Shown one piece after another: positions 13,931 to 64,000 of a stretch of 64,000 nucleotides of DNA. The DNA comes from an uncultured bacterium (GTDB lineage Bacteria; Patescibacteriota; JABMPQ01; CAVVCK01). Numbering within the stretch: position 1 is the stretch's first letter; each line of letters begins with the position of its first letter. The notes under the pieces are model-generated. The model saw only the letters and a program-made list of their open reading frames with translations. It made no database searches and had not been told where the DNA came from. The position numbers and the translations under genes are program-made. The stretch spans positions 431,656 through 495,655 of the forward strand of contig CAVVCK010000002.1 in assembly GCA_963746775.1 (NCBI GenBank), written 5' to 3'.

Positions 13931-13944
13931 AAGCGGAAAATATA

Positions 13945-36189: not shown

Positions 36190-36218
36190 TTATATTATTT
36201 TGTTCTTGTGTTATGTTG

Positions 36219-38391: not shown

Positions 38392-38432
38392 ATTTTCAAA
38401 ATTAAGAAAGCCACTTTAATGGCTTTCTTTTT

Positions 38433-40663: not shown

Positions 40664-41377
40664 TTATTCTTTTGGCTTACTCTTATTAACATCACTGCCT
40701 TTTGACACACACCACCACCAAAAGTTAAACCTTTCACTACCATCAGGTTCAGGTATTAATCTTTGCCGAGCTTCATTTATTAAATATATATAATTTTTTC
40801 TCCCATTCTTGGCTATATTTTCTTCCATAGCATGATCATAATCAAGGATACTTAAATATTGTTTGGCATGAATATCCATTTTAGAAGCTTTTGCTCCTGC
40901 TTGCCATCTACCTAGCCATACCTCCATTTCCCTATAGAAATATTCAACTTTATTTCTCTCTTTCATCATCATTATAATGTCTTCCTTGGAATCATTACCC
41001 ATATTCTCAATATACATTTTATATTTTTCGAAACTATCATCTAAATAAACTCTGATATAATCTACAATTTCATCTATTCTAATCTCATCAAAAATATCAT
41101 ACAATTTTTTATAAAGTTCACTCGCTTCTTTTTTTCTAGTATCAAATTCTTCTTTGTTTATTACTTTATTGGGAATACCGTGTAATTTAACAAAATAATC
41201 AAATTCATTGCTTAACTTTTGCCCTAAATATAAACATTCCGGTAACTCTTTATATTCTAAAGAAGCACTTGAAATATTTTGTTTTAAATCTAATATTGTT
41301 TCAAGTATCAATAGCCAGTCTTTTTTTATCTGGCTCAGCTCTTCATCGGATAAAATCTTTTTTCCGACTGTGTACAT
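40664..41377 (-). CDS. Hypothetical protein inserted between rplO and secY
   Basis: 237-aa soluble, Trp-rich C-terminus (FNFWWWCVSKG). No recognised family. Confidence 0.45.
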   Translation of the reverse strand: MYTVGKKILSDEELSQIKKDWLLILETILDLKQNISSASLEYKELPECLYLGQKLSNEFDYFVKLHGIPNKVINKEEFDTRKKEASELYKKLYDIFDEIRIDEIVDYIRVYLDDSFEKYKMYIENMGNDSKEDIIMMMKERNKVEYFYREMEVWLGRWQAGAKASKMDIHAKQYLSILDYDHAMEENIAKNGRKNYIYLINEARQRLIPEPDGSERFNFWWWCVSKGSDVNKSKPKE

Positions 41378-42955: not shown

Positions 42956-43058
42956 TTTTTCTATACTAATTATTACGATGCTAATATACTAATGCATACG
43001 AATCATACGAATGAATTATTAGTATAATTAGTATTCATTCGTATATTTGTATCGCCTA
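42956..43058. repeat. Family-3 intergenic palindromic element (CGATGCTAATATACTAAT ... ATTAGTATTCATTCGTATA)
   Basis: Shares words with 52765-52856 and 55499-55586. Internal inverted repeat ATACGAAT/ATTCGTAT. Confidence 0.55.
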
Positions 43059-45153: not shown

Positions 45154-45171
45154 AAATCATTAACTATGTAA

Positions 45172-45250
45172 TTATCCGCTTTATCCGCCAAATCCGCTAT
45201 ATCCGTAAACTACAAATAGCGGATAAAGCGGATTCTGCGGATAGACGGAA
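45172..45250. repeat. Family-2 palindromic element (ATCCGC words) inserted between rplN and rplX
   Basis: TTATCCGCTTTATCCGCCAAATCCGCTATATCCGTAAAC...TAGCGGATAAAGCGGATTCTGCGGATAGACGG. CCGCTTTATCCGC and GCGGATAAAGCGG are exact reverse complements. Confidence 0.65.
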
Positions 45251-45280
45251 AAAACATACTGATAAATTTTATAATCTACT

Positions 45281-47816: not shown

Positions 47817-48149
47817 TTATTCTTTTTTATCTTTTACTGGAGCAGCAGGTGCTGATTCTTTTACCTTTGCTTCTGCTTCTTCTTCTTTAGCCATTCTGCC
47901 ACCATGTACTACGAATTTCTTAGTAGGTGAAAATTCACCTAATTTATGCCCCACCATTTCTTCTGTTATAAATACAGGAATATGTTCTTTCCCATTATGA
48001 ACACCTAAAGTAAAATTGATCATTTCAGGAAAAATGGTTGATCTTCTAGACCAGGTTTTAATGATTCTTTTATCTCCTGGCTTTAGGTCTTTAATTTTTT
48101 TTAATAACTTAGGATCACAGAATGGTCCTTTTTTAAGTGATCTGGACAT
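47817..48149 (-). CDS. rpsS: 30S ribosomal protein S19 (with C-terminal Ala/Lys/Glu tail)
   Basis: [10 protein letters not shown] ... [10 protein letters not shown]. Confidence 0.9.
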
Positions 48150-48153
48150 AATA

Positions 48154-48996
48154 TTATTTTCTTCTTTTAATAATCAATTTACTTGATCTCTTTTTCTTAT
48201 TTCTTGTCTTAACACCGATGGCTGGCTTACCCCAAGGTGTTTTAGGATGTTTCATACCTATCGGAGTTGATCCTTCACCACCACCATGCGGATGATCAAC
48301 TGGATTCATTGCTTTACCTCTGACGTGCGGTCTAATACCTTTCCATCTTTTTCTACCTGCTTTACCTATCTCTATATTAATATGTTCTACATTACTTACT
48401 TGGCCAACAGTTGCCATACAACTAGATAATATATTTCTTACCTCACCCGAAGAAAGTTTTACCTGGGCATATTTATTCTCTATAGACATTAACTGAACTT
48501 GTGAACCAGCACTTTTGGCTAACTGTGAACCTCTACCAGGGTAAAGTTCTATTTCAGAAATAAATGTACCTGTTGGAATATATTTCATAGGCATTCTATT
48601 ACCTATATTTGCATCTATTTTCTTTTTAGATGATAAAATTTTGTCTCCTACTTTAATTAATTCAGGAGCAACTATATAACTTTTTTTACCATCTTCATAT
48701 TTAATTAAAGCAATAAAAGCGGTCCTATTTGGATCATACTCTAGGGCAATTACTTCTGTAATCTCATCATATCTACTTCTTTTGAAATCAACTATTCTAT
48801 ATCTTCTACTATTACCACCACCTCTGTGTCTCGAAGTAACTCTACCAGTACTTTTACTTCTGCCAGTTTTTTTTCTGGATTTCAATAATAAAGATTTCTC
48901 CGGTTTTTTCTTTGTTAGAACACTATAATCAACCGTTTTCATATAACGTCTCGATGGGGTTGTTGGTTTGTAAGTTTTTACTGACATATCTAACAA
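48154..48996 (-). CDS. rplB: 50S ribosomal protein L2
   Basis: [11 protein letters not shown] signature. Confidence 0.92.
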
Positions 48997-49181
48997 TTAA
49001 TAATTGATAATAAATAATGAAAATGAAATTAGTTATTTAGAAAATAGAAATTTGTAATAGATATTAGAAACTAGAATTACAAATTTCTATTTTCTACTTT
49101 CAATTACCCTTTTCTAGTTTCTGTACATCCAGTTTCATGTAAAATATTTTAAATGTGATCACTTTCAATAACAAATATAAT
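48997..49181. repeat. Family-1 intergenic inverted-repeat element inserted between rplW and rplB
   Basis: TAGAAAATAGAAATTTGTAATAGATATTAGAAACTAGAATTACAAATTTCTATTTTCTA (imperfect palindrome). A 185-nt gap in an otherwise tightly packed operon. Confidence 0.55.
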
Positions 49182-49574
49182 TTATACACCATCATATATC
49201 TGAATCGTCTGTCCTTTAGGTAAAGCTACTATAGCTTTTTTGTAAGTAGATGTCCTGCCTTGTACTTTGCCATATCTTCGCTCTTTTCCACCAACCTTTA
49301 TAGTATTAATACTTATTGGTTTTATTCCATAAACATCTTTAATTGCCTGACTTATTTCTTTTTTATTAGCTTTATTTGATACTATAAAAATATATTTATT
49401 CTCTTCACTTAAATAAGTTGCTTTCTCAGAAATTTGGGGATAAAGTAAAATTTTGTGAGCATTGCTTTCAATTTTAGCTTTCGATTTTTCAACCTTTTTA
49501 GGAGTTTTCTTTTTGCTATCTTTCTTTTTACTATCAACTTTTTCTTCTTTTTTAAATTTATCTAAAATACTCAT
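49182..49574 (-). CDS. rplW: 50S ribosomal protein L23 (with N-terminal Lys-rich extension)
   Basis: LLYPQISEKATYLSEENKYIFIVSNKANKKEI. Confidence 0.88.
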   Translation of the reverse strand: MSILDKFKKEEKVDSKKKDSKKKTPKKVEKSKAKIESNAHKILLYPQISEKATYLSEENKYIFIVSNKANKKEISQAIKDVYGIKPISINTIKVGGKERRYGKVQGRTSTYKKAIVALPKGQTIQIYDGV

Positions 49575-49583
49575 TTTATAAAT

Positions 49584-50216
49584 TTATTGTTTATAATTAT
49601 TTTGCAAATTTTCTACAGCCTGAACAGTCATTAAAAGTGAATCATATTTTAAAATATCATATAAATTTAGACTTTCGGTAGTAGTTAATTTCATCTTAGG
49701 AGCATTCTTAATAGACTTTAATATTGTTTTATCTTGTATTCCTAAAACTACTAAAGCATTTTCATTTTTAACTGGTAATTTATTAATACTTTTTACAAAT
49801 TCCTTAGTGCTAATTTTCTTCATTTTTAATTCATCAACTAAAATCAATTTTTTATCATTTACTTTAGAACTCAGAGTCATGAATAAAGCTTTTTTTCTTT
49901 CTTTCTTGTTAATTTTTTTCTTGAAATTAATATTAGAACTTGGTCCAAAAGTAACACCACCACCAACCCAGATAGGAGATCTATTTGATCCATGACGTGC
50001 TCTGCCTGTACCTTTTTGTTTCCATGGTTTTCTACCACCACCTCTTACTTCACTTCTATCTTTTACGTGTGCTACTACGTTTCTTTTATTGGAAAGATGA
50101 GCAACTACAACCTTATGAATAACTTCTTTTTTTACTTCAATATCAAAAATATCCTTATCTAAATCTAGATCTTTTACTTTCTTACCTTCCATATTGTAAA
50201 CTGTAACTTTCGCCAT
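49584..50216 (-). CDS. rplD: 50S ribosomal protein L4
   Basis: RGGGRKPWKQKGTGRARHGS. Confidence 0.92.
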   Translation of the reverse strand: MAKVTVYNMEGKKVKDLDLDKDIFDIEVKKEVIHKVVVAHLSNKRNVVAHVKDRSEVRGGGRKPWKQKGTGRARHGSNRSPIWVGGGVTFGPSSNINFKKKINKKERKKALFMTLSSKVNDKKLILVDELKMKKISTKEFVKSINKLPVKNENALVVLGIQDKTILKSIKNAPKMKLTTTESLNLYDILKYDSLLMTVQAVENLQNNYKQ

Positions 50217-50217
50217 T

Positions 50218-50832
50218 TTATGATTTTATAAAAACTAAACTTTCTCTAGCACCAGGAATACCACCTTTTAAAATAATTAAATTTTTATCAACATCTAAAT
50301 CTATAACTTCAGAATTTAAGGTTACTTTATCTCCGCCCATTCTACCAGCCATCCTTAAACCTTTTATAACATGTTCAGGATAACCAGCACCGATTGAACC
50401 AGGTTTTCTTAAATCATGTTTGTGACCATGTGTTTTTGGAGATCCATGAAATTTATGTCTCTTAACAACTCCAGCGAATCCCATACCTTTTGATTTAGCA
50501 ATAATTTTCACTTTATCCCCTTTTTCGAAAACATCAACTTTTATTTCTTGTCCTTCTTTAACATCATTCAATTCATCTACTCTTAATTCTCTTAGATATC
50601 TTAATTTGTCTTTTCCTTTTAATGCTTTATTCAAATGTCCTGTTCTTGGTTTATTATTTTTTGCAGTTTCGGAAAAACCAATTTGTAAACTATTATATCC
50701 TTCTTTTTCAACTTTTTTTATTTGGGTAACATAACAAGGTCCAGCAGTAACTAAAGTAACAGGAATAGCTTTCCCTTTTTCGTTATAAATTCTGCTCATT
50801 CCAATTTTTTTTCCTATAATTACTTTATACAT
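50218..50832 (-). CDS. rplC: 50S ribosomal protein L3
   Basis: IIGKKIGMSRIYNEKGKAIPVTLV. Confidence 0.92.
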   Translation of the reverse strand: MYKVIIGKKIGMSRIYNEKGKAIPVTLVTAGPCYVTQIKKVEKEGYNSLQIGFSETAKNNKPRTGHLNKALKGKDKLRYLRELRVDELNDVKEGQEIKVDVFEKGDKVKIIAKSKGMGFAGVVKRHKFHGSPKTHGHKHDLRKPGSIGAGYPEHVIKGLRMAGRMGGDKVTLNSEVIDLDVDKNLIILKGGIPGARESLVFIKS

Positions 50833-50853
50833 AATAAAATAATATTAAATTAA

Positions 50854-50915
50854 TTCCGCGCTATCCGCAAACTAAGTTATTGCGGATGATACGGATAAAG
50901 CGGATTACGCGGATC
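50854..50915. repeat. Family-2 palindromic element (ATCCGC words) in the rpsJ-rplC spacer
   Basis: TTAATTCCGCGCTATCCGCAAACTAAGTTATTGCGGATGATACGGATAAAGCGGATTACGCGGAT. Confidence 0.6.
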
Positions 50916-50932
50916 AATAAATTACGTAAATT

Positions 50933-51100
50933 AATATTTACCTATCAAAAACCGGAAATTTAAGAAGCCAGAAAACATACGCCGGCTTCTAAAATTTCCG
51001 GACCTTGCTTACTTTAAATTTACTAAATAACAATAAAATAATTATTTAGTAAATTCTTTAGCTTATACTTTTAAGTCCCGATTTTAATCGGAACTTTAAT
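50933..51100. other. Three consecutive hairpins in the rpsJ-rplC spacer
   Basis: CCGGAAATTTAAGAAGCC...GGCTTCTAAAATTTCCGG (17/18 bp). TTACTAAATAA...TTATTTAGTAA (11 bp perfect). AAGTCCCGATT-tta-AATCGGAACTT. Confidence 0.5.
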
Positions 51101-51111
51101 TATAAACTATC

Positions 51112-51441
51112 CTACATTTTAATCTCAATATCAACTCCAGCTGGTAAATTCAGATTAGTTAATGCTTCAATAGTATCTGGCTTCGGTTTTAAAATATCAA
51201 TCAATCTTTTATGAATTCTCATTTCAAATTGCTCTCTGGCATCTTTATGAACAAAGGTAGATTTATTAACTGTCTCTACTCTTTTCTCTGTAGGCAGAGG
51301 GACTGGCCCGCAAATCTCCGCCCCAGTTCTCTTGGCTGTTTCTACAATTTGAATAACTGCTTGATCAATTATCTTATGATCAAATGCTTTAATTTTTATT
51401 CTTATTCTTTGGGTTATCTCTTCTTCTTGGTTTTTAGACAT
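51112..51441 (-). CDS. rpsJ: 30S ribosomal protein S10
   Basis: [19 protein letters not shown] ... GPVPLPT. Confidence 0.92.
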
Positions 51442-51468
51442 TTTAATTAAAAGGTACTATTCAATTAA

Positions 51469-52659
51469 TTATTTAATAATTTTAGTAACCACACCAGCTC
51501 CAACCGTCTTGCTACCTTCTCGGATAGCAAACTTTTGTTTTTCTTCCATAGCAATTGGTGCTCCAAGCTTTACATTTAAATTAGCTGTATCACCAGGCAT
51601 AACCATTTCTGTACCTGCGGGTAATTCTACTTCTCCTGTTACATCAGTAGTTCTGAAATAAAATTGTGGCTTATATCCTTTAGCGAAAGCTGTATGTCTT
51701 CCACCTTCTTCTTTAGTTAGAGCATAAATTTCTGCTGAAAATTCAGTATGAGGAGTAATTGTCCCCGGTTTAGCTAAAACTTGACCTCGCTCTACATCTT
51801 CTTTCTTTGTTCCACGAAGCAGAATACCTGCGTTATCACCTGCTTGGCCTTCATCTAATTGTTTATTAAACATTTCAATTCCTGTCACAACTGTCTTTGG
51901 AGTATCTTTAAGACCAACTATTTCAACTTCATCATTTAAATTAACTTTTCCTCGCTCAATTCTACCAGTCACAACTGTACCACGTCCTTCAATTGAGAAA
52001 ATGTCTTCGATTGGCATTAAGAAAGGTTGATCAACATCTCTTTTTGGTTCTGGAATATATGAATCTAACTTTTCGAATAATTCTAAAATTGGTTTAGCAT
52101 CATCACCTGTTGGATTTTCTAAAGCTTTTAGAGCCGAACCACGAATGATGGGTATTTCATCGCCAGGATATTCATATTTTTTCAATAAATCTCTTACTTC
52201 CTCTTCAACTAAATCAACTAATTCAGGATCATCAACCTGATCAACTTTATTCAAAAATACAATAATAGAAGGGACACCAATTTGATGAGCTAATAAAATA
52301 TGTTCTCTCGTTTGAGGCATGGGACCATCAGTAGCAGAGACTACTAGAATTGCACCGTCCATTTGAGCAGCACCTGTAATCATATTTTTAATATAATCAG
52401 CATGGCCTGGACAATCAACGTGGGCGTAATGTCTTTTTTCAGTCTCATATTCACAGTGAGCAGTAGCAATAGTAATTCCTCTTTCTCTCTCTTCAGGTGC
52501 GGCGTCAATTTGATCAACTCCTTTTTCCTGAGCTTTTCCTTTACCAGAAGCATTTAAAACTTTAAGCATAGCGGCTGTTAGCGTAGTTTTACCATGGTCA
52601 ACATGACCAATTGTACCAACATTAATGTGAGGTTTTCCTCTTTCAAATTTATCTGCCAT
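51469..52659 (-). CDS. tuf: Elongation factor Tu
   Basis: [19 protein letters not shown]. 396 aa. Confidence 0.95.
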
Positions 52660-52764
52660 TTTTTTATTTTTAGTTAATAGTTATATAAAATATTAGTTTA
52701 TATTATAGCTGTAAATTTACTTATGTCAAATGTTTTTTGGGCTTTTTCACAGTATTAATATACC

Positions 52765-52856
52765 AATTTATGCGAATTATACGAATAAATACTTGATTAG
52801 TATTATTAATATCAATTAGTATGCTTATCTCGAGTATTTTCGAGAGATTAGCATCG
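52765..52856. repeat. Family-3 intergenic palindromic element
   Basis: TATGCGAATTATACGAATAAATACTTGATTAGTATTATTAATATCAATTAGTATGC...GATTAGCATCG. Confidence 0.5.
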
Positions 52857-52861
52857 AAATA

Positions 52862-53191
52862 TTAGAAATCATCATCTAGATCTTCATATAGATATTGGGT
52901 TTCATTTTTTAAATCTTCATCAGTAGAATCGCCTGTTAAAAAATGATCATCTAGATTTTTTTCCTCTTCATTTTGACTAGCGTGCCAAATAGCTATATCT
53001 TTATTGATTTTCTCTACTAATTCTTCTTTAGACATTTCTCCTATAAAAACATTTTCTGAATTAGAGACTATTTTCTTATATTCCTTAATATCCATTAATA
53101 CATATGAGGGTTTACCTTCTTCTACAATAATATACTTACCACTAGAATTTTTTAATAGATCAATAATTTCGGAAAAATCTTTTGAATTCAT
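52862..53191 (-). CDS. Small acidic protein with Phd/YefM-antitoxin-like N-terminal domain, inserted between fusA and tuf
   Basis: N-terminus YIIVEEGKPSYVLMDIKEYKKI resembles the Phd/YefM fold. Highly acidic C-terminus (EDLDDDF). No cognate toxin adjacent. Confidence 0.4.
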   Translation of the reverse strand: MNSKDFSEIIDLLKNSSGKYIIVEEGKPSYVLMDIKEYKKIVSNSENVFIGEMSKEELVEKINKDIAIWHASQNEEEKNLDDHFLTGDSTDEDLKNETQYLYEDLDDDF

Positions 53192-53392
53192 AAAATTATG
53201 TTAAATTATTTATATTATTTCTTTTATTGTAATCTATCAATAAAGACAAATCTAATATAAATATTGAAATATATAGAAACTTATTGAAATTCACAGAAAT
53301 TAATTGTTGTTTACCATGTACTCAGAAAAACAACAACGAATTTCCTATACTTCGACAAACTCAGCACAAGATTTCTATTAATTTCTAAGTTT

Positions 53393-55498
53393 CTATTTCT
53401 TTTCATCTTCTCCAATAATTTCTTTAGCGACATTGCCTGGAACTTGCTCATATTTCTCGAATTCCATTGTATAATTAGCTCGTCCTTGAGTTAGAGATCG
53501 TAGTGAAGTTGAATATCCGAACATGGAAGCTAAGGGTACAAAAGCTTTGATAACTTTCATATTTGTTCTATCAGTCATTTCTTGAATCTGCGCTCTTTTT
53601 GAATTTAGATCACCTACTACATCACCCATTGATTTTTCTGGAGTAAGTACTTCGACTCTCATTACTGGTTCGAGTAAAACTGGATTAGCTTTTTTAACAC
53701 CACTACGGAAAGCCATAGATCCAGCTATTTTAAAGGCAGCTTCTGAAGAGTCAACATCATGATAAGAACCATCATATAAAGTTACTTTTACATCTATAAC
53801 CGGATAACCAGCTAATACTCCATTATCAGATGCTTCTTTGGCTCCTTTACCAACTGGCTGTATATATTCTTGAGGAATAACTCCTCCTTTTATTTCATTA
53901 ACAAATTCAAAACCCTTACCTCTTTCCTGAGGTTCAAGTCTTAACCAAACATGACCGTATTGTCCACGTCCTCCTGATTGCTTAATATATTTTCCTTCAA
54001 CTTCTGTAGCAATTGTTATTGCTTCTTTATAAGCTACTTGCGGTTTGCCTACTGTTGCTTCTACTTTAAATTCTCTCTTCATGCGATCAACTAAAACATC
54101 TAAATGAAGCTCTCCCATACCAGCTATGATTGTCTGCCCAGTATCCTCATCAGTTTTAACTCGAAAAGTAGGATCTTCTTCAGCTAATTCTCTAAGTGCA
54201 TGAGCCATTTTTTCTTGATCTGCTTTAGTCTTTGGTTCAATAGCAACTGATATAACCGGCTCAGGAAAAGTAATTTTTTCTAATATTATAGGATTATCTT
54301 CATCACATAAAGTATCACCAGTCGTTGTACCTTTTAAACCTACAATAGCAGCAATATCACCAGTATATACTTCTTTAATTTCTTCTCTTTTATTGGCATG
54401 CATACGCACAATTCTACTAACCCTTTCTTTCTTGCCAGTTGAAGCATTAAGGATATATGATCCAGCTTTTAATACTCCCGAATAAACTCTGAAAAATATT
54501 AATTTACCAACAAAAGGATCTGTGGCTACTTTAAAAGCAAGCCCGGCAAATGGTTCGTTATCATCTGTTTTTCTAATTATCTCTTTTTCTTCGTCGTGAA
54601 CATCGCAGCCATGAGCTGGTGGAACATCTAATGGCGAAGGAAGTAAATCAACTACAACATCGAGTAATTTTTTTATAACAGCTTTTCTACCATCACCGCC
54701 AAGTACTGGATAATATTCTCCAGAAATAACACCCTTGCGCATTGCTCTTTTATATTCATCTACGGATATTTCTTGGCCATCTAGAAATTTTTCCATAACC
54801 TTATCATCAGCTTCTACAATTATTTCTAACATTTCATTTCTATATTTCTCACAAATTTCTTTCATATCTTCTGGAATTTCTTTTGCTTCAGATAATTCTA
54901 AACCATCTGTACCTTCAGTATAATAAGCCTTCATTTCTAGTAAATCAACTAAGCCTTTGATATCTTCTCCTTGACCAATCGGTAACATTATAGGAAAAGC
55001 TTTATTGCTTAATCTTTCTTTAATAGAATCTAGAGATCTATAAAAATCTCCACCAACTAAATTCAATTTATTTAAAAAACATATTCTGGGAACTTTATAT
55101 TTATCAGCTTGATGCCAAACTGTTTCCGATTGTGGTTCAACACCCATTTTACCATCAAATATTACTACTGCACCATCTAAAACTCGCAGTGATCTTTCCA
55201 CTTCCACAGTAAAATCAACATGACCTGGTGTATCAATAATATTTATACGATGTTCGTTTTTTTCTTTTAAATTAGTCGGAGACCAAAAACAAGTCGTAGC
55301 TGCCGAAGTGATAGTAATACCTCGCTCTCTTTCTTGTTCCATCCAATCCATAGTAGCTTCACCTTCATGAACTTCACCAATTTTATAAGAAATTCCAGTG
55401 AAATATAAAATACGCTCTGTGACTGTGGTTTTTCCAGCATCAATATGAGCGATTATTCCTATATTTCTTATTTTTTCGAGTGGATATTGTCTTGGCAT
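53393..55498 (-). CDS. fusA: Elongation factor G
   Basis: [21 protein letters not shown]. 701 aa. Confidence 0.95.
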
Positions 55499-55586
55499 AT
55501 TTTCGATACTAATATACTAATTTATACGAATTATACTAATACAAAATTATTCGTATTATTAGTATTCATTCGTATATTGGCATCGA
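55499..55586. repeat. Family-3 intergenic palindromic element between rpsG and fusA
   Basis: CGATACTAATATACTAATTTATACGAATTATACTAATACAAAATTATTCGTATTATTAGTATTCATTCGTATA. Confidence 0.55.
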
Positions 55587-56054
55587 TTATCTTGCATAGT
55601 GTGCAAAAGCCTTATTGGCTATAGCCATTCTATGAACATCCTCTTTCTTTTTAACAGCACTACCTAAACCTTTGGAGGCTTCGATAATTTCAGAAGCTAA
55701 TTTTTGAGCCATAGGCTGACCCTTTTTGCCTCTAGCAACTTCAAGCATCCAGCGCATAGCTAGGGTGTTTTTGCGACTACCTCTAACTTCAAAAGGTATT
55801 TGGTAATTAGCTCCACCAATTCTGCGACCTTTAATTTCTAGTGTTGGAGAAACATTTTTCATGGCTTGATTAAAAACTGACATAGGATCTTTTTTGGTTT
55901 TCTCTGCTACAATATCAAAAGCATCATAAATTATAGATACAGCTACTGATTTCTTGCCACCTTTCATAATATGATTAATAAATTTGCCTATTAAAGCATT
56001 TTTATGTTTTGGATCTAGATATTCTTCTCTTTTATATACTTGTTTTTTTCGCAT
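55587..56054 (-). CDS. rpsG: 30S ribosomal protein S7
   Basis: KFINHIMKGGKKSVA ... conserved S7 core. Confidence 0.92.
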   Translation of the reverse strand: MRKKQVYKREEYLDPKHKNALIGKFINHIMKGGKKSVAVSIIYDAFDIVAEKTKKDPMSVFNQAMKNVSPTLEIKGRRIGGANYQIPFEVRGSRKNTLAMRWMLEVARGKKGQPMAQKLASEIIEASKGLGSAVKKKEDVHRMAIANKAFAHYAR

Positions 56055-56139
56055 AATATTAGGGTTTAATTATTAAAGAATAGGGTGTAGAATTTTATTA
56101 ATTACTGACTACTAACTATTCTCTATTCCCTTAAAAAAA

Positions 56140-56610
56140 TTATTTACTTTCTTCTTTAGGAACTTCGGCAGGCGCTGCCTTCTTCTTGGCTCCCTTACTG
56201 CTTTTATCTAATTTAGCACCATATAGACTTCTTCCCTGTTTTCTGCCATCTACACCGCCTGTATCAAGCGGTCCACGAACAATATGATATTTAACACCGG
56301 GCAAATCTTTTACTCTACCACCACGGACAAGTACTACAGAGTGTTCTTGTAAATTATGACCTTCTCCTGGAATATAGGCAGTAACTTCCGTACCATTAGT
56401 AAGTCTGACACGAGCAATCTTTCTTAGAGCAGAGTTTGGCTTCTTAGGAGTCATAGTGGTTACTTTCATACAAACTCCTCTTTTGAAAGGATTGCCAGTT
56501 TTTACAAATTTCTTTTTAATTTTATTAAAATCACGCTGCAGTGCAGGTGACTTGGGTTTTCTCTTAACAGTTTTTCTTCTTCTCTTTACTAATTGATTAA
56601 TAGTTGGCAT
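56140..56610 (-). CDS. rpsL: 30S ribosomal protein S12 (with C-terminal extension)
   Basis: [13 protein letters not shown] ... [10 protein letters not shown]. Extra C-terminal ~30 aa, Lys/Ala-rich. Confidence 0.92.
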
Positions 56611-56999
56611 TTATAGTTATAAATAAAAAAATATCTATATAAATAGATAGAAATTATATTAATTTCCTTTATCAATACTTATTATAGTAAGCAAAAAAAA
56701 GATGTCAAATGAATTTAATAAATTAGTTATTAGGAAATAGATATTATAAGATTATTTATCAAATAAAACCGAATAATCTTATTTAAAAAATAGAAACTGG
56801 CTATATAGAAAATAGAAATTGGTAATAGAAATTAGAAAAATTGAAAATAGTTATGATATAATTCAAATGAAACAAAAGCTATTTTCTAATTTCCAATTAC
56901 TATTACTATCTTCCAATTTCTAAATAGCTAATTTCAATTTCATTTTTTAAAATCTCTGATTTCATATGATATTCAATTATTAGATATTATTTCCCACAT
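56611..56999. repeat. Family-1 intergenic inverted-repeat element (largest copy) upstream of rpsL
   Basis: Left arm TAGAAACTGGCTATATAGAAAATAGAAATTGGTAATAGAAATTAGAAAAATTG. Right arm CTATTTTCTAATTTCCAATTACTATTACTATCTTCCAATTTCTAAATAG. Confidence 0.6.
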
Positions 57000-57410
57000 T
57001 TGCATTTATTCTTTATTTCGTATTATAATTACTCTATGCAAATAAACATCCTAAAAAGCAAAAATCTCCAGCAATCCACATCTGAAATTACTAGAGACAT
57101 TTTTGAAGTATTTTCTATTTTTTATTTAATTTTATTATTAGTAAATCAAATAAAAATAGGCTTTGTGAGTGATTTCTTAAATTTAAATCATATCTTAATA
57201 ATTGTTGTAGTCTCAGGACTTTTATCTCTCTGGAAAGAAAAATTAGAAGTGGGCAATAGAGATTATGTTTTTATTGTAATTTTGGCTCTGCTTGGAGCTA
57301 TGGCTATATTCTATAAAACTTCTATCTTCGGAAATTTTAAAGCTTCTATTTTCGCTTTCTTGAGTTTTGTTTTTATTATTTTAGTTTTATTTTTTTTATT
57401 AAAGAAGTAA
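57000..57410 (+). CDS. Hypothetical small membrane protein (3-4 TM), plus strand
   Basis: 136-aa hydrophobic ORF, divergent from rpsL. No family recognised. The true start may be the internal Met (MQINIL). Confidence 0.35.
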   Translation: MHLFFISYYNYSMQINILKSKNLQQSTSEITRDIFEVFSIFYLILLLVNQIKIGFVSDFLNLNHILIIVVVSGLLSLWKEKLEVGNRDYVFIVILALLGAMAIFYKTSIFGNFKASIFAFLSFVFIILVLFFLLKK

Positions 57411-57463
57411 ATTGTTTTGCATTAAAAAAGACTGCACAAGAGCAATCTTTTTTTATTTATTAT

Positions 57464-58489
57464 TTAATAACCAATAGCTTGCCACTGTATTTCAGCCTCA
57501 GCAGGATAAGTAGAGCTACTCCAGTATACCCTAAAAGTATCACCATCTACTCGACTTATATATAAATTACCCAATTCACTTTCAGTTAATGTAGGATTAT
57601 TTTGACTGGTTGTTACATTATAGCTCGTATTACTTGTAAAAAAATTAGATGGTAATTCAATGGTATCAGAACAGCCCGCGATTACTGGGCAACCTGCTCC
57701 CCCTGAGGCACTAACATTAGCTACTCCGACTATTATTTTACTTGGATAAGGGTTAGGATTAGGCGTAGTTAAATTTGTATCAGAACCACTATCAGTACTA
57801 TAATAAACAGCATTTTCATTAGATACATCCACTCCATCTACATCACCACTCACGGTTAAATTACTTATACTTAAATCATCATCCACCCTCAACGTCACCT
57901 CTCCACTTGTTCCTCCGCCAGATAATCCTGTTCCAGCAGTAATTCCGGTAATATCACCTCCATTTACCCATTCTAAAGCCTCTCCATTATAGGATAGTAC
58001 TTGATTAGTTGAAGCAGCATTAGTAGTAGCTAGGTTATTAGTATGAATTACTCCTGTTCCTAACAAATTACCTACAGTTACCTCACCAGCAAAATAGGCA
58101 TCTTTCCACTGATTATCTTCCGTCCCTATATCGTTAACATTATTTAGAGCAGGCATTAGCGTATCGGCTATCTTTAAAGGCATATCATCAGCTGTTCCTT
58201 TAGAAGGCCCTCTCCAAATCATACCATCTACTCTTAAGTCATCACCCATAGTCAGAGGAACACTACCTGCTGAATTATTAATCATGGTACCATTGAAAAA
58301 AGTTACTCCGCCTTCGCCGGTAGTTTTACCAATGTAAGCAGAATCAAACCTGGCAGTACCATTAACTGTTAGATCCTCGTTGTAGGTAATAGTTTGAGCT
58401 GGTTGAAGATCGGTAGCGGGGGAAGCAGAGGCTAGATCCACCAAAGCGAAGATGCCTAAAATTGTTAGGAAAGGCAATAGTTTTTTCAT
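57464..58489 (-). CDS. Secreted Gly/Thr/Asn-rich repeat protein (signal peptide), paralog of the downstream gene
   Basis: Signal peptide MKKLLPFLTILGIFALVDLASA. Conserved N-domain ...DDLRVDGMIWRGPSKG..DMPLKIADT..NDIG..N.WK.AYFAG.VTVG shared with the 58526..60526 protein. Confidence 0.55.
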   Translation of the reverse strand: MKKLLPFLTILGIFALVDLASASPATDLQPAQTITYNEDLTVNGTARFDSAYIGKTTGEGGVTFFNGTMINNSAGSVPLTMGDDLRVDGMIWRGPSKGTADDMPLKIADTLMPALNNVNDIGTEDNQWKDAYFAGEVTVGNLLGTGVIHTNNLATTNAASTNQVLSYNGEALEWVNGGDITGITAGTGLSGGGTSGEVTLRVDDDLSISNLTVSGDVDGVDVSNENAVYYSTDSGSDTNLTTPNPNPYPSKIIVGVANVSASGGAGCPVIAGCSDTIELPSNFFTSNTSYNVTTSQNNPTLTESELGNLYISRVDGDTFRVYWSSSTYPAEAEIQWQAIGY

Positions 58490-58525
58490 TTTCTAAAGAA
58501 TTATTAATATTTCCTATATTATCAC

Positions 58526-60526
58526 TTATTGCAAACTGAGCAAAGTCATAATTTTACATTCCTCTTGATCACAAGACTCTAACGCTTTACCAAAAATAGA
58601 ATTTCTTCTTTCTTCGTTTTCTTTTAAGATAGATTTTAGCCCATCAAAATCACTAGCCTCATCAGTATCGCGTAAAGTAAATTTCATTGCATATCCTTCT
58701 CGAGAGGAGGTTGTTAATAGATCTCCGATTTCTATATTACCATTTTCGTTGATAACTTTTGTCGGAATTCTACCCGCCAAGGTAATTGGTGCCAAATTTT
58801 CGGGCATTTCATAATCTGCATCTAGACCTCCTAAACTACTAAAATTATTTGATTCTCCATCGAAATTAAAAGAAATGTTAGGAGTAGTACTCACTACGCC
58901 AATTACTCTTTTATCATAAGATGTATTAGTATGACCAACTTTTACATTGTCTACTAAAACAACTACGTCTCCTTTTTCTAGTTTTTTATTCGTAGAAAAT
59001 CCTTCAGCAAGATCATAGGCAGCTCCATCAACCCCGGTATCATATGATATAGTACCGTCGCCAACATCTGGACAACCAGCTCCAGGATTATTGCTTGGAT
59101 CATCTACACAAAGTCCGCCAAAAACTGCAAATACACCTTCTCTATTATTTTCGCATAATGTTGAAGATGGATTACACTTATCTCCACCCCAACTATAACT
59201 TTTATCTCCACTTGTAGTAGCTCCATAGCCAGTTGATATAGCATATTCTCCAGTAGCACTGCCACGACCCAAAACAGCTGAGTAATCACCACTTGCCAAA
59301 GCATCATATCCTAAAGCCATAGAATAATCACCTATATTACTATTATCCCACTGAACACTGTCTACATATCCTGCTCTAAAAGCAGATTTTCTGGGATACC
59401 ATAATAATTTTGTAGCTTCACCAGAAGCTTCCAAGGTTGTAGCTGTACCATAATCACCTTGGGCCACTATCATGCCATCATCATAAATAGTTGTTCCGCC
59501 GTCTGTAGCATCTCCATATCCCCCACCCACAGAAGCAGTTCCAGTTACACCCAGTATTCCACCTAATGAAGTATTTCCACCAGCTAAAAAATTTCCATCT
59601 AAAAACAAGCTCCCGGTATCATAGATAGTAACTCCCGTAGATCCATACCCTCCGCCAACAGTTAAATTGCTAGATGCAATTACGTTACCTGTCAAAGCAC
59701 TTATTCCACCTACTGTCAACATCCCTCCTGTAGTAAGAGAACTTGCCGATAAAGCTCCATTAGCATTGATACCGCCCGTGGTGTCATAAATTGTTACCCC
59801 GCTATCACCAAATCCACCAGCGATATCAATATCAGTTCCATCATTATAAATTAAACTAGAAGCTTCCCAACCATTTGATCCATATCTTATCGTTTGGCCA
59901 GAAGTTCCCGCAGGTAAAATACCTCCGTCACTAGTTCCATCTCCATCTGAAGAACCTGTTATGGGTATCCAGGTAAATTGGCCATTTTGATTATAAGATA
60001 ATACCTGGCCAGCAGTTGCACTATTAGTTACATTAAGATTTTCTTCATTAATAATGTTTGCTCCTTCTAAATCTCCAACTGTTACTGCCCCGGCAAAATA
60101 ACCATTTTTCCATCTATTTGTAGTCGAACCAATATCATTAATATCAGTCATAGTTGGAATCATGGTATCAGATATTTTAAGGGGCATACCATCGGAAATA
60201 CCTTTGGATGTTCCTCTCCATATTTCACCATCAATACGGACATCATCTCCAAACGTTACTGGTATATTACTAATTCCATTATCATCTAAAGAAGAATTGA
60301 CAATTGTATGGTCGGCAAAAATAACACCGCCCAGATGCATGCCCTCGTAAAAATAACTTGCTCTGCCGGCACTTACAGCACTATCGGTTCTTAACCTTTC
60401 TCCGTAAATAACATCTTCGGCCGGTTGAATTTCCTCCGCAGTAGATGCCTTGGAAATATTTATATTGAAAAAGCAAAAAACAATCGCTAGAAATAAAATA
60501 ACTGCAAATTTAGCTATTTTAATCAT
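58526..60526 (-). CDS. Secreted Gly/Thr-rich beta-helix-like repeat protein with Cys-containing C-terminal domain (adhesin or tail-fibre-like)
   Basis: Signal peptide MIKIAKFAVILFLAIVFCFFNINISKA. N-domain paralogous to 57464..58489. Long GG.G/TT repeats. The DNA is locally GC-richer (~40%+) than its surroundings. Confidence 0.55.
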   Translation of the reverse strand: MIKIAKFAVILFLAIVFCFFNINISKASTAEEIQPAEDVIYGERLRTDSAVSAGRASYFYEGMHLGGVIFADHTIVNSSLDDNGISNIPVTFGDDVRIDGEIWRGTSKGISDGMPLKISDTMIPTMTDINDIGSTTNRWKNGYFAGAVTVGDLEGANIINEENLNVTNSATAGQVLSYNQNGQFTWIPITGSSDGDGTSDGGILPAGTSGQTIRYGSNGWEASSLIYNDGTDIDIAGGFGDSGVTIYDTTGGINANGALSASSLTTGGMLTVGGISALTGNVIASSNLTVGGGYGSTGVTIYDTGSLFLDGNFLAGGNTSLGGILGVTGTASVGGGYGDATDGGTTIYDDGMIVAQGDYGTATTLEASGEATKLLWYPRKSAFRAGYVDSVQWDNSNIGDYSMALGYDALASGDYSAVLGRGSATGEYAISTGYGATTSGDKSYSWGGDKCNPSSTLCENNREGVFAVFGGLCVDDPSNNPGAGCPDVGDGTISYDTGVDGAAYDLAEGFSTNKKLEKGDVVVLVDNVKVGHTNTSYDKRVIGVVSTTPNISFNFDGESNNFSSLGGLDADYEMPENLAPITLAGRIPTKVINENGNIEIGDLLTTSSREGYAMKFTLRDTDEASDFDGLKSILKENEERRNSIFGKALESCDQEECKIMTLLSLQ

Positions 60527-60683
60527 TTTTTTTATTTTTATTTTTGTTTTAAATATTTTTAAAGATATTTATACTCTTGCTTATATTATAGCAAATTATA
60601 GCCTTGCGGTCAATATACAAACCAAAAGTTATCCCCTGTTATCTTTATACCACCTAACAAATCTTTCTATCCCTTTTTCTATA

Positions 60684-61628
60684 CTAACCTTTCGGTCTAT
60701 ATCCTAATAATCTCCTTGATTTACTTATATCGGCATAAGTTTTTCCCACATCACCTGGTTGCATAAGCATTTTTTTAATTTTAGCTGATTTCCCTACTGC
60801 CTTCTCTATTACTTCTATAAAATATTTTAACTTAACTGTTTTGGAATTACCTAAATTAAATATTTCATAAGTACTCTTATTTTCCCCTACATAATTCATG
60901 GCTAAAATAATGCCACTTACAATATCATCTACATAAGTATAATCTCTAAAAGTATTTCCATCTCCATACATCTGTATCTCTTTGCCCTCAGAAATTAATT
61001 TGGTAAATTTATAAGGAGCCATATCCGGCCGACCACAAGGTCCGTAAACTGTAAAAAATCGTAAACAAGCTGTATTAATTTTATATAAATGATGATAAGT
61101 ATAGCATATTAATTCACCTGCCTTTTTAGTAGCGGCATAAGGAGATATGGGTTTATCTACTCTATCACTCTCAGAAAATGGTACTTTGTTATTATTACCA
61201 TAAATAGATGAAGAAGAAGCAAAAATAAAATTTTTAACTTTATATTTTTTAGCTAATTCTAGAAGATTGACAGTTCCTATAATATTTATCTGGTGGTAAA
61301 GCAATGAATTTTCAATAGAAGGTCGCACTCCTGCTCTAGCGGCCAAATGAATAATTATATCTATTTTATTACTTTTGAAAATCTTATCTAAACCTGCTAA
61401 GTTGCATATGTCCTCTTTATATAATATAAAATTTTTATTATCCAAAAATTCTTCAATATTTTCTTTTTTGAATTTTGGGTTATAATAACTATTTCCGCCT
61501 CTTTCGGCAGATGCGCCGCCAGAGGCACAAAAGTCATCCACACAGATGACTTTTTTATTTTGCTTTAATAATTTTTTAATCAAGTGGCTGCCAATAAAAC
61601 CAGCGCCACCAGTAACTAGAATAAACAT
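60684..61628 (-). CDS. NAD-dependent epimerase/dehydratase family protein (UDP-sugar epimerase-like SDR)
   Basis: VTGGAGFIGSHL Rossmann motif. YAATK catalytic YxxxK. Confidence 0.8.
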   Translation of the reverse strand: MFILVTGGAGFIGSHLIKKLLKQNKKVICVDDFCASGGASAERGGNSYYNPKFKKENIEEFLDNKNFILYKEDICNLAGLDKIFKSNKIDIIIHLAARAGVRPSIENSLLYHQINIIGTVNLLELAKKYKVKNFIFASSSSIYGNNNKVPFSESDRVDKPISPYAATKKAGELICYTYHHLYKINTACLRFFTVYGPCGRPDMAPYKFTKLISEGKEIQMYGDGNTFRDYTYVDDIVSGIILAMNYVGENKSTYEIFNLGNSKTVKLKYFIEVIEKAVGKSAKIKKMLMQPGDVGKTYADISKSRRLLGYRPKG

Positions 61629-61676
61629 ATATAATTATTATTCTAAATTCTAAATACAAGATACTATATACAGATT

Positions 61677-62969
61677 TCAAATTCTTCCTACTCCACTATA
61701 CTTAAACCCTAATTTTCTCATTTTCTCTGGATCCAAAATATTTCTACCATCAATAATATTTGGTTTCTTCATTAATCTTTTAATTTTCTTATAATCAAGT
61801 TTCTGAAATTCTGTCCAATCAGTAGCAATTACTAAGGCTTCAGCTTTTTCGACCGCTTCATAAGGATTCTGACAAAATTTTACATTTTTATCTTTTAAAA
61901 CTACTTGAGAATTTTTAGTTGCTTGAGCATCATAAGTTGAAATAGAAGCTCCAATATCAGACAGCATTTTAATAATATCAATCGCCGCTGATTCTCTAAT
62001 ATCATCAGTGTCTTTTTTAAAAGCAAGACCTAGTACACATACCTTTCTTTCTTTTAAATTATTGAAAAGATCTTCTAATTTATCAATAATTAAAGTTCTT
62101 TGTCTATTGTTTACTTCAATTACTGATTTTATAAGTTTAAAATCATAGCCATTTGTGCCGGCAATTTGATTGAGAGCATTTACATCCTTGGGGAAACAAG
62201 AACCGCCATAACCAATACCAGCTTTCAGAAAATCCATGCCAATTCGCTTATCCATTCCCATACCGCGAGCTACATCTTCTACATCAGCTCCAACCTTTTC
62301 ACAAATATTAGCAATTTCATTAATGAATGAAATCTTTGTAGCTAAAAAAGCATTTGAGGCATATTTAGTCATTTCAGACGATTCAACTGTAGTCGTTACT
62401 TTTGGATAATCAATAGGTTCATACACTCCCAGCATTATATCTCGAGCTTTATTTGTTCTAGTGCCAAAAACTATTCTGTCAGGTTTTAGAAAATCTTTGA
62501 CAGCCGAACCTTCTCTTAGAAACTCTGGATTAGAAACAACATCAAATTTACCTTTGTAATATTTGGAAATTATCTTTTCTATTTTTTGAGCTGTTCCAAC
62601 TGGCACAGTGCTTTTATTTACAATCACTTTATAATTATTCATATTCTTGGCAATTTCTTTGGCAGCCGCTTCTACATAAGTTAAATCTGCCCTACCATCT
62701 TTCCTGGAAGGAGTACCAACGGCAATAAAAATAACTTCACTATTTGGAATAGTATTTTTATATGAAGTTGAAAAAGATAGTCTTTTATTTTTCTGCTCTT
62801 CTAAAATTAATTTTCCTAGTCCTGGCTCATAAATAGGAACCTTGCCGCTTTTATATAAATCTATTTTTTCTTGATCTATATCGAGATTAATAACCTTGTG
62901 GCCTATTTTAGCTAGACAAGCTCCAGTAACTGAGCCAACGTAGCCGGTACCTATGATTGCGATGTTCAT
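61677..62969 (-). CDS. ugd: UDP-glucose 6-dehydrogenase
   Basis: MNIAIIGTGYVGSVTGACLA. Catalytic GGSCFPKD. Confidence 0.88.
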   Translation of the reverse strand: MNIAIIGTGYVGSVTGACLAKIGHKVINLDIDQEKIDLYKSGKVPIYEPGLGKLILEEQKNKRLSFSTSYKNTIPNSEVIFIAVGTPSRKDGRADLTYVEAAAKEIAKNMNNYKVIVNKSTVPVGTAQKIEKIISKYYKGKFDVVSNPEFLREGSAVKDFLKPDRIVFGTRTNKARDIMLGVYEPIDYPKVTTTVESSEMTKYASNAFLATKISFINEIANICEKVGADVEDVARGMGMDKRIGMDFLKAGIGYGGSCFPKDVNALNQIAGTNGYDFKLIKSVIEVNNRQRTLIIDKLEDLFNNLKERKVCVLGLAFKKDTDDIRESAAIDIIKMLSDIGASISTYDAQATKNSQVVLKDKNVKFCQNPYEAVEKAEALVIATDWTEFQKLDYKKIKRLMKKPNIIDGRNILDPEKMRKLGFKYSGVGRI

Positions 62970-63163
62970 ATATTATACTATTAGTTTATTGAAATATTAA
63001 TTCTACTACCAAAACTTTAAATTACTGAAATTGGCTGTATAGAAATTAGATATTGGTAATAAAAAGTGGAAAATGGATAAATATAACCTAGGTAAAATAA
63101 TATCTAATTTCTAACTTCTAATTTCCATCACTATTTTCCAATTTCTATATAATTAATTTCTGA
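62970..63163. repeat. Family-1 intergenic inverted-repeat element
   Basis: AATTGGCTGTATAGAAATTAGATATTGGTAATAAAAAGTGG ... TATCTAATTTCTAACTTCTAATTTCCATCACTATTTTCCAATTTCTATA. It shares GGCT(A/G)TATAGAAA(A/T)TAG with 56778. Confidence 0.6.
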
Positions 63164-64000
63164 CTAAATATATTTTCCTAAATCCTCAACTTTATCCTTC
63201 TCTTCCCAAGGAAATCCTTCACCTTCTCTGCCGAAATGCCCATAGGCTGCTGTTTTTTTATAAATTGGTCGCTCTAAATCCAGTGTTTTAATAATTCCTG
63301 AAGGGGTTAAATCAAAATTATTTCTGATAATTTCTACCAATTTTTCTTCACTTACTTTCCCAGTACCAAATGTTTCCGCCATAATTGAAATAGGTTCCGG
63401 ATAACCAATAGCATAAGATAATTGCACCTCGCAGGTATCAGCTAAGTCGGCAGCTACAATATTCTTAGCAATATAGCGTGCCATATAGGCTCCGGATCTA
63501 TCTTGTTTATTAGGACCTTTACCAGAGAAACAGCCACCGCCATGCGCTCCACGTCCGCCATAGGTATCAACTATAATCTTTCTGCCCGTAAGTCCAGTAT
63601 CAGCATGAGGACCACCTTCAACAAATCTGCCTGTTTCGTTAACATAATATCTGGTTTTTTCATCAATATAATCCTTGCAAATAGGTTTTATTACTTGCTC
63701 AATCACATCTTCTCTTACCTTTTTTAAATCAATATCTCCATCGTGCTGAGCGGCAATAACCACAGCCTCAACTCTGACTGGTTTTTCATCTTTATATTCT
63801 ACTGATACTTGAGATTTACCGTCTGGTCGCAAATACGATATTTCATTTGTTTTTCTTGCATCTGCTAATTTACGAGTAAGCCTATGAGCTAACATAATTG
63901 GCAGAGGCATAAGCTCTGGTGTTTCTTTACAGGCAAATCCAAACATCATACCTTGATCACCAGCTCCCATGGCCTGATGAGGACTTTTCCCTTCTTCCTC
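63164..64000 (-). CDS. metK: S-adenosylmethionine synthetase, C-terminal ~280 aa (5' part beyond window end)
   Basis: [26 protein letters not shown]-like [18 protein letters not shown]. The frame continues open to position 64000. Confidence 0.88.

Follow-up and report, generated by a model that had tools for sequence, protein, structure and literature searches.

A 64,000-nucleotide stretch of contig CAVVCK010000002.1 from an uncultured Patescibacteriota bacterium (hereafter the window, meaning this stretch at its full length) carries six intergenic copies of short inverted-repeat elements, 106-144 bp long, which fall into two families, 1A (copies b, d, e and f) and 1B (copies a and c). We propose, giving the proposal about an even chance of being right, that both families are non-autonomous DNA-level elements of a foldback or MITE-like (miniature inverted-repeat transposable element) kind, probably mobilised in trans. 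The proposal builds on the observed homology of the copies, their hairpin potential and seven-nucleotide (heptad) periodicity, their presence in many Patescibacteria lineages, gain or loss at orthologous sites, and the relocation of sister hairpin families. The window has ~31% GC and nearly all its genes lie on the minus strand; after the str, S10 and spc ribosomal-protein operons come secY-adk-map-ruvX and further genes. The best named relatives of its SecY are from metagenome-assembled genomes (MAGs) of Patescibacteria and the Parcubacteria group. Copies b and c are not assembly artefacts, since an independent assembly from another sequencing run (L006; the sequences compared here carry L numbers) is 100% identical over 11.8 kb covering both.

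A preliminary description of the window had reported inverted-repeat elements at six loci, and these are real, with an excess of words, homology at all six and a significant fold at five. The word TAGAAATTGG, with at most one mismatch, occurs 32 times in the window against 13.2 +/- 3.6 in shuffled sequence (none of 100 shuffles reached 32), and its matches concentrate at the six loci. Long inverted repeats were detected by a repeat finder at four of them (4022-4110, 49038-49096, 56808-56913 and 63027-63160). When each core was compared with 200 dinucleotide shuffles, which do not preserve the heptad words, the folding z-scores on the sense/antisense strands were -5.4/-3.9 for copy a, -5.2/-1.9 for b, -3.5/-4.6 for d, -6.6/-7.3 for e and -3.5/-4.0 for f. 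The fold of copy c (39140-39265) was not significant (z -1.4/-1.8); this copy is decayed and its hairpin is no longer distinguishable from shuffles. Smith-Waterman comparison gave z-scores of 9-26 within the group b, d, e and f and of 7 between a and c, but only 1.7-4.6 across families, and none of 12 control intergenic spacers gave a comparable score (all at or below 42). Thus within-family similarity goes beyond composition, as judged against shuffles and control spacers, and is more than the low-complexity AT-rich likeness that the preliminary description had named as its refutation. Its single "family 1" survives as a shared vocabulary and divides into two families.

The copies were delimited by profile searches and blastn, as a stricter heptad regular expression missed known copies. 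The self-comparison that had been recommended returned the homologous copies, and blastn found no additional strong copy within the window. Moreover, a 1B profile built from other genomes only gave full-length matches in the window at copies a and c alone, besides one partial match inside copy b (E 3.6e-4).

The arms of the elements are made of a degenerate tandem heptad, T-(A/G)-G-A-A-A-(A/T), with its complement on the opposite arm. The units stand head to tail and are degenerate, not perfect, and form arrays of 25-56 nt per arm that contain no internal short palindrome. The lag-7 autocorrelation is 0.44-0.59 in all six copies as opposed to 0.35 in control spacers; lag 14 gives a second peak. 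Special words occur in fixed order among the heptads, namely terminal GAAAWTRGTTRT / AYAACYAWTTTC and central GGTAAT / ATTAC. All six reading frames of every copy contain stop codons. In family 1A the G-words lie on the 5' arm and in family 1B the C-words do, and the two topologies are not interconvertible by reverse complementation.

The four 1A copies can be aligned end to end with sharp edges, TGAAAYTGGCTRTATAGAAA ... loop ... TTTCTAAATARYTAATTTCA, and have the inverted termini TGAAAYTRGCT... / ...AGCYARTTTCA. They occur in both orientations, b and d reading forward on the minus strand and e and f on the plus strand. Copy b (35559-35680; 1A profile E 3.3e-21, aligned over its whole length) fills the Sm_multidrug_ex-TIM spacer, starting 5 nt past the stop codon and ending 8 nt before the ATG. 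Copy d (49025-49136; E 1.2e-18), in the rplW-rplB spacer, has perfect 21-nt arms at 49038-49058 and 49076-49096. Copy e (56792-56935; E 3.7e-21) forms the strongest hairpin of the six and lies in a divergent region, with rpsL (minus strand) on one side and an open reading frame (ORF) for a hydrophobic 124-residue protein (plus strand, 57036-57410) on the other. Copy f (63026-63161; E 8.1e-21; inverted repeat 63027-63160) begins 2 nt past a stop codon between genes that their Pfam matches identify as metK-like and UDP-glucose dehydrogenase. The locus first described as 56611-56999 does hold an element, but only at 56792-56935, and a separate promoter lies within the same limits; the example words quoted for positions 56778 and 63030 actually start at 56799 and 63033.

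Of the 1B copies, to which no strand was assigned, copy a (4020-4125; 1B profile E 1.6e-15) has its inverted repeat at 4022-4063 / 4069-4110, runs from the C-word arm through an apical CCAATGACAAAT...ATTTGACATTTGG to the G-word arm, and is flanked by two GT4 glycosyltransferase genes. Copy c (39148-39265; E 2.4e-14) occupies the secY-adk spacer; its orthologues are present in L002 and L124, with 78% identity to L002 6180-6294 and a central part that aligns ambiguously between the two.

Relatives with 90-94% identical SecY, compared junction by junction, bear out the earlier remark that the elements inflate spacers between tightly packed genes. The rplW-rplB spacer measures 185 bp in the window and 14 bp in L001, the secY-adk spacer 216 bp against 32 bp in L001 and 31 bp in L122/L123, and the map-ruvX spacer 166 bp against 2 bp in L001. 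In the outgroup L126 the secY-adk spacer has 58 bp and no element. In L002 and L124 an orthologous 1B copy fills this site, and in L124 one of its arms has a GC-rich hairpin nested within it. No family-1 copy is present anywhere in 21 kb of L001; as SecY identity places this empty genome among filled ones, loss or independent gain has to be assumed. In these relatives the element sites are dispensable.

The most telling evidence for mobility comes from pairs of near-identical genomes. L015 and L026, which are 95% identical, have wholly different hairpins or spacers at four junctions, with the divergence reaching the ATG. In L186 and L206, also 95% identical, the hairpin TTGATAATTGTTAATTGGATAATAGG...CAATTAATAAA lies at rplW-rplB in the former and at rplB-rpsS in the latter, and one terminus of this complex hairpin falls exactly at the ATG in both. 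These exchanges bear on an unlikely alternative in which the elements never transpose and are generated and turned over in place, polymerase slippage expanding heptanucleotide repeats in AT-rich spacers and intrastrand template switching copying one arm into the other. Local generation would suit the strong 7-nt periodicity and the known excess of heptamers in bacterial intergenic DNA (PMC4692102), as well as the one-armed heptad array found at rplW-rplB in L206, the long pure arrays of L028 and L066, the replacement of whole spacers, and the fact that neither target-site duplication nor transposase was found at the inspected loci. It does not readily account for non-repeat features and word order conserved at unrelated loci and across lineages, for independent profiles that recover exactly the window copies, or for an identical complex element at different junctions in L186 and L206.

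Intergenic hairpins were also surveyed in the candidate phyla radiation (CPR). A metagenome scan with RplB gave relatives 52-60% identical, and no closer pair of filled and empty sites for copy d. Among 69 CPR loci obtained from it without bias, the rplW-rplB spacer has a median of 10 nt; it reaches at least 60 nt in ten, most of which contain hairpins whose word families differ. Of the intergenic regions that measure 60 nt or more, 67 of 140 contain long simple hairpins, and 21 of these hairpins are strongly periodic, 12 with period 7 and seven with period 8. One genome holds several word families side by side that are unrelated and have periods of 7, 8 and 9.

The window also holds other hairpin families. 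A 117-bp GC-richer hairpin, TTTCCCTCTTTTAATAAGGGGAG...CCCCTCCTTATTAAAGGAGGGGAA (CCCCTCC...GGAGGGG), fills the ruvX-GT2 junction at 36960-37076, and the same element is found one junction further, at GT2-Sm_multidrug_ex, in L002 (9114-9230); the opposite site is empty in each genome, with a spacer of 5-29 bp. A second family with ATCCGC / GCGGAT words and a 9-nt period is present at 13828-13944, 45154-45280 and 50833-50905, two of the copies being inside ribosomal-protein operons; CGGATAAAGCGGAT occurs in it four times and its copies are far more alike than those of family 1. A third family (ATATACGAATGAATACTAAT... words) lies at 42956-43058 (rplR-side spacer) and 55499-55586 (rpsG-fusA spacer), and has a relative at L001 14523-14632, in the Sm_multidrug_ex-TIM spacer, the junction that bears a 1A copy in the window. 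Further period-7 hairpins of other words (ACAAACAAAT / ATTTGTTTGT, and GTAGTGAGTAGTTTGTGATGAGTAG) are at 37479-37644 and 7905-7973. A second hairpin is nested inside a first in L206 (3900-4020), L124 (4003-4233) and L105.

A collection of species-representative genomes was searched with the pattern TAGAAATTGGTAAT(N)DGAAATT, a word of 21-22 nt; taxon labels are those of the records. The pattern occurs in more than 115 genome stretches, mostly of Patescibacteria. Among the matches listed, 56 of 119 bear Patescibacteria-type names, 32 of 119 have the third-party labels "Gammaproteobacteria", "Bdellovibrionales" or "Pseudomonadales", and 95 of 119 sit in a hairpin. Most of the hairpins have co-directional neighbours (53), the others divergent (11) or convergent (10) ones. 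The records of the second kind that were checked have CPR-like gene order or 95% identity to a Moraniibacteriota contig. Among the remaining matches are some chance occurrences in coding sequence, but also genuine arrays or hairpins of heptads, in Bacteroidales, a Planctomycetaceae isolate, Chloroflexia and others. No match was found in 2.9 million viral contigs, so that carriage by phages is unsupported. The flanks outside the search pattern nonetheless reproduce both architectures of the window. The 1A architecture, ~125 nt long, is present in Levybacteria, Liptonbacteria and several other MAGs, where the order of words is unchanged, the 3' arm has the mirrored ATTAC and the ends are GTTRT / AYAAC. 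The foreign 1B elements consist of a C-arm AATTTCYAATTTCTAATATCTAATTTCCAAT, a variable apex and a G-arm TTAGAAATTAGAAATTGGTAATTAGAAATT, and the apex often holds CCAATGAC / GTCATTGG or AATGTCAAA / TTTAGACATT. The 1B matches nearly fill their spacers, with medians of 6.5 nt from the stop codon and 9 nt to the next start.

With regard to these records, the taxon labels of "MAG TPA_asm" entries look unreliable: L009, L025, L026, L029, L032, L108 and others are labelled Gammaproteobacteria or Bdellovibrionales and have CPR-like gene order, and L026 is 95% identical to the Moraniibacteriota contig L015. The AT-rich heptad words of the window also build a ~90-nt hairpin in a cultured organism of 53% GC, Planctomycetaceae SH248 (L117, 1625-1723), lie inside a GAGATCG-word hairpin in a Chloroflexia contig of 54% GC (L086), and make up long pure tandem arrays in two Bacteroidota MAGs (L028 and L066).

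Known mobile elements of the MITE and foldback type include the Correia elements of Neisseria, Nezha of cyanobacteria and the foldback (FB) elements of Drosophila, in which short tandem repeats make up the long inverted ends. The preliminary description had suggested MITE-like mobile elements, and much of the likeness stands: the copies are small (105-145 bp), non-coding, homologous and multiple, the whole element is a hairpin with inverted ends, the positions are intergenic and the orientations both ways. There is presence or absence between relatives (secY-adk and rplW-rplB are filled here, rplW-rplB is empty in L001 and secY-adk in L001 and L122/L123), insertions are nested in L105, L124 and L206, and other Patescibacteria hairpins have relocated. 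What was not found, at the inspected boundaries, in the scanned ORFs of the window and in 115 element-bearing loci, is a target-site duplication, a related transposase or a parent insertion sequence. Furthermore, the arms of the window elements are heptad arrays and not unique inverted repeats, their consensus is common to very distant lineages, and elements of the window type often replace the spacer from stop to start codon instead of simply interrupting it.

Repetitive extragenic palindromes (REPs) and the hairpins that they compose (REPINs) are mobilised in trans by RAYT, a Y1 transposase like that of IS200/IS605, encoded by a single-copy gene elsewhere, and leave no target-site duplication. 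Our elements are similar in being intergenic hairpins of ~100 nt within operons, and mobilisation of the REPIN type would explain why no transposase lies nearby. They differ in their arms, which are heptad arrays and not a 5' GTAG-type tetranucleotide with a short palindrome of ~20 nt, and no RAYT gene was found in the window or in the 8-20-kb loci.

In sequence, the closest phenomenon is that of the intergenic heptameric repeats, such as GGGAATC of Xanthomonas, GGGGAYT of Nostoc/Anabaena and the STRR (short tandemly repeated repetitive) heptamers of Calothrix, while in behaviour MITEs, foldback elements and REPINs are closest. Such heptamers are in excess in the intergenic DNA of bacteria, where some form inverted pairs, and they are highly variable among close relatives (PMC4692102). 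The elements of the window share with those of Xanthomonas and Nostoc the 7-nt unit, the intergenic location, occasional inverted pairs able to form stem-loops, the variability and similar words (GGRAATY), but their heptads are degenerate, and they have a fixed architecture, non-repeat termini and dispersed homologous copies. Being AT-rich, the window words also lack G-quadruplex potential. In the searchable literature no description of these elements was found, either by topic or by sequence words, and the longer words had zero occurrences.

If the preferred reading of a foldback or MITE-like family is right, the elements would enter or replace the very short stop-to-start spacers of compact Patescibacteria genomes. 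There they would persist, as no gene is broken and stop codons stand in all frames, to be lost later by deletion; their place between stop and start codons and the fact that they cannot be read through would make them tolerable. A protein encoded elsewhere would recognise the heptad arrays or the hairpin and catalyse movement in trans, and the copies would have no function that the host requires.

Several results weigh against this reading. No consistent direct repeat was found at the edges of the four 1A copies or of ~12 1B copies from GC-richer genomes, although AT-rich flanks could mask a 2-bp TA duplication. No transposase was found among the scanned flanking and unannotated ORFs of the window. 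All-against-all clustering of 1,178 ORFs from the 115 element-bearing loci, carried out as a search for a linked transposase, yielded no shared candidate gene and no protein family in more than 11 of the 115; on inspection by eye, the families shared most widely look like housekeeping ones (glycosyltransferases, NusB, a Mur ligase and DnaK). Direct relocation is demonstrated for sister hairpin families and not for 1A or 1B themselves. Part of the alignment similarity is shared restricted vocabulary, because dinucleotide shuffles lose the heptad words. This objection is countered only partly by the position-specific features and by the 1B profile, which was built independently. Also, some family-1 junctions are reused in distant lineages, such as secY-adk in L029/L108 (SecY 60% identical) and rplW-rplB in L025 and L183, besides fusA-tuf in L031 and rpsG-fusA in L079, and the occupation of secY-adk and rplW-rplB in distant lineages could reflect function rather than tolerance. 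Finally, window 1A copies are 73.9% identical to each other and 73.0% (up to 82%) to copies of other lineages, the latter having been ascertained through the 21-22-nt word and therefore being biased towards the consensus. The window copies are thus no closer to each other than to foreign ones; a recent burst in this genome would not leave such a pattern, and a functional consensus under conservation would fit it.

One consensus kept in a star-like manner across distant lineages, together with fast turnover of sites, is not explained well by any simple model. It is possible, though we consider it improbable, that the heptad-array hairpins are cis-sites of an undescribed Patescibacteria-wide system for mobility or recognition, or of a host signal. 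For mobility, a conserved trans-acting protein would read the T-R-G-A-A-A-W arrays and would insert, replace or exchange whole spacers between stop and start codons, with neither target-site duplication nor a linked transposase. As a host signal, the array might be bound, for example, in segregation or in the DNA uptake of these competence-dependent organisms. Such a system would explain how a consensus of ~125 nt lasts across ancient divergences despite turnover between genomes that are 95% identical.

Four results point to elements that act at the DNA level: folding is strand-neutral, there is no covariation, both orientations occur and copy e has its particular context. Over 53 hairpins between co-directional genes, sense and antisense folding did not differ (Wilcoxon p 0.58), and G:U asymmetry, used as a test of an RNA role, showed no bias. 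In 14 copies of 1A placed in symmetric register, 77% of cells pair, compared with 30-53% when the register is slid. The pairs were counted on this explicit symmetric structure because heptad arms pair in several registers; indeed, RNAalifold on the same copies gave a weak consensus of -4.3 kcal/mol with the register shifted by one heptad. Covariation in the 14 copies was not above that of column shuffles (0.077 vs 0.094) and the stem mismatches fall repeatedly on the heptad's R and W positions, so that the arms are conserved as words and not through compensatory change.

Conservation as words would suit recognition by a protein, and iterated regulator-binding arrays, as suggested in the preliminary description, may account for it. 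A related and rather unlikely explanation is that the arrays are a host cis-element bound by a conserved Patescibacteria protein that polymerises in a 7-bp register and serves nucleoid organisation, segregation or regulation, the hairpin potential then simply following from the inversion of the arrays. A known analogue is the omega protein of plasmid pSM19035, of the ribbon-helix-helix type, which binds contiguous WATCACW heptads, direct or inverted, with 7-10 per site. Our arrays likewise consist of contiguous 7-bp units, direct and inverted, conserved as words and not as base pairs; the word differs, however, and the arrays are chromosomal and dispersed. A conserved heptad core with R and W varying independently on the two arms without covariation, a consensus kept across distant lineages with star-like similarity and conserved position-specific word order, and a probably untranscribed copy e in a divergent promoter region would all be expected of a host cis-element. 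Less expected would be the absence of copies at orthologous sites in close relatives, including the 21 kb of L001 that lack family 1, the unrelated word families of periods 7, 8 and 9 in one genome, and the unrelated hairpins swapped at one junction in genomes that are 95% identical; nor did the analysis turn up a candidate binding protein.

The results on folding bear equally on a quite unlikely role as RNA punctuation of operons, in which the elements would be RNase III sites, 3' or 5' stabilisers or attenuators in polycistronic mRNA. Five of the six copies do lie between co-directional genes, in or beside ribosomal-protein operons, the long near-duplex stems would suit RNase III, folding of the full spacers favours the sense strand by 6-12 kcal/mol for a, b and c, and 1B copies stand ~9 nt upstream of start codons. 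However, the 53 hairpins gave no strand difference and the 1A copies no covariation, the elements occur in both orientations, the sites are dispensable in relatives and copy e is between divergent promoters. Ordinary terminators with GC-rich stem and U-tract are found elsewhere in the window, whereas the elements, with 18-23% GC and no T-run, do not have the form of intrinsic terminators. A scan of the whole window with Rfam 15 at gathering thresholds found only RNase P, and E-value scans of 56600-57470 and 34600-39400 found nothing at E<=1 in any element. Neither tRNA nor tmRNA, checked for association with the elements, was found in the window.

Copy e is probably untranscribed, since it lies between divergent promoters. 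On one side, the perfect rpsL promoter TTGACA-16-TATAAT (minus strand, 56681-56708; 12/12 matches in a consensus scan), read 56708->56681, sits between copy e and the rpsL ATG at 56610; on the other, promoter-like sites of the plus-strand ORF 57036-57410 are downstream of the copy. This plausible ORF, divergent from rpsL, would encode 124 strongly hydrophobic amino acids; it had no Pfam match when scanned in a 136-residue form with a TTG start, and accounts for most of an apparent 853-bp "intergenic" gap. An arrangement of copy e between a terminator and a promoter was rejected, as the terminator-like sequence 57098->57064 falls inside this ORF.

That the elements are promoter cassettes, with AT-rich arms and TTGACA boxes acting as internal promoters, is very improbable, and this suggestion of the preliminary description is not supported. 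The boxes it had noticed in copy a are there (TTGACA / TGACAA, in the apex), and a single weak promoter-like match falls in copy e (plus strand, 56833-56862), but the TTGACA of copy a has no properly spaced -10. The number of promoter-like matches in 48000-64000 is what shuffling predicts (73 vs 73.1), the perfect promoters of rpsL and tuf lie outside the elements, and copies such as b fill a stop-to-start spacer within an operon.

As observations on expression signals, the perfect TTGACA-16-TATAAT promoters at 56681-56708 before rpsL and at 52702-52729 before tuf, both on the minus strand, make it appear that this Patescibacteria genome uses canonical sigma-70 promoters. The spacers before start codons (e.g. 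35551-35558 and 48997-49024, and 1232-1245 in L001) have no Shine-Dalgarno-like GGAGG and hairpin elements terminate 0-10 nt from start codons, which suggests that translation initiation in this clade may be independent of Shine-Dalgarno pairing.

The variable palindromic stems of TIGR (tandem interspaced guide RNA) arrays occur in CPR bacteria (PMC12045711; 10.64898/2026.09.09.750476) and, like those of our elements, are missed by ordinary repeat finders. Dispersed stem-loop guide RNAs of this kind for a Tas (Nop-domain) protein are nevertheless an extremely improbable explanation, and identity with a TIGR-Tas array is largely refuted by the anatomy of the elements. TIGR arrays are tandem, lie next to tas and have two spacers and box C/D in each loop, whereas the window copies are single and dispersed, with no tas gene beside them and no loop holding two 8-12-nt spacers and box C/D; the 1B apical motif CCAATGAC / GTCATTGG is a plain Watson-Crick stem. 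The unannotated 341-residue ORF (57464-58489), whose place near copy e could speak for such a system, had no Pfam, NCBIfam or PDB-sequence match.

Patescibacteria genomes are among the smallest and most tightly packed, and still hairpin repeats of ~100-200 bp stand within their most conserved operons (str, S10 and spc) and are exchanged between genomes otherwise 95% identical. If selfish, they would represent a widespread class of mobile DNA, undescribed in the searchable literature and of an unusual structure built of heptads; if bound by a conserved protein, they would belong to a regulatory or chromosome-organising system common to the CPR. They may offer a link to the excess of heptamers in bacteria such as Xanthomonas and Nostoc, which awaits an explanation. 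In practice, they could serve as fast-evolving strain markers, may break or mislead short-read assemblies, and could be taken in error for promoters or for repeats of a CRISPR- or TIGR-like kind.

Other features of the window concern its genes. Between fusA and tuf, in the str operon, a 109-residue ORF (52862-53191, minus strand) has a weak match to the Phd/YefM antitoxin family (E 1.8e-5, below the Pfam cut-off). In this clade rplO and secY are separated by a conserved gene for ~237-240 amino acids that belongs to no Pfam family (40664-41377, minus strand; 9196-9912 in L001 and 4071-4796 in L002), and a DJ-1/PfpI gene found between rpsE and rplO in relatives is absent from the window. The S-adenosylmethionine synthetase ORF 63164-63970 (minus strand) has only 268 residues, with matches to the central and C-terminal domains and not to the N-terminal one, and the window ends 30 nt upstream of it. 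RpsL (56140-56610, 156 residues) extends ~20 residues beyond the end of the bacterial S12 model, RplW (49182-49574, 130 residues) has ~37 additional N-terminal residues, and the RNase P RNA (9425-9885) has 461 nt as compared to the 367 positions of its model.

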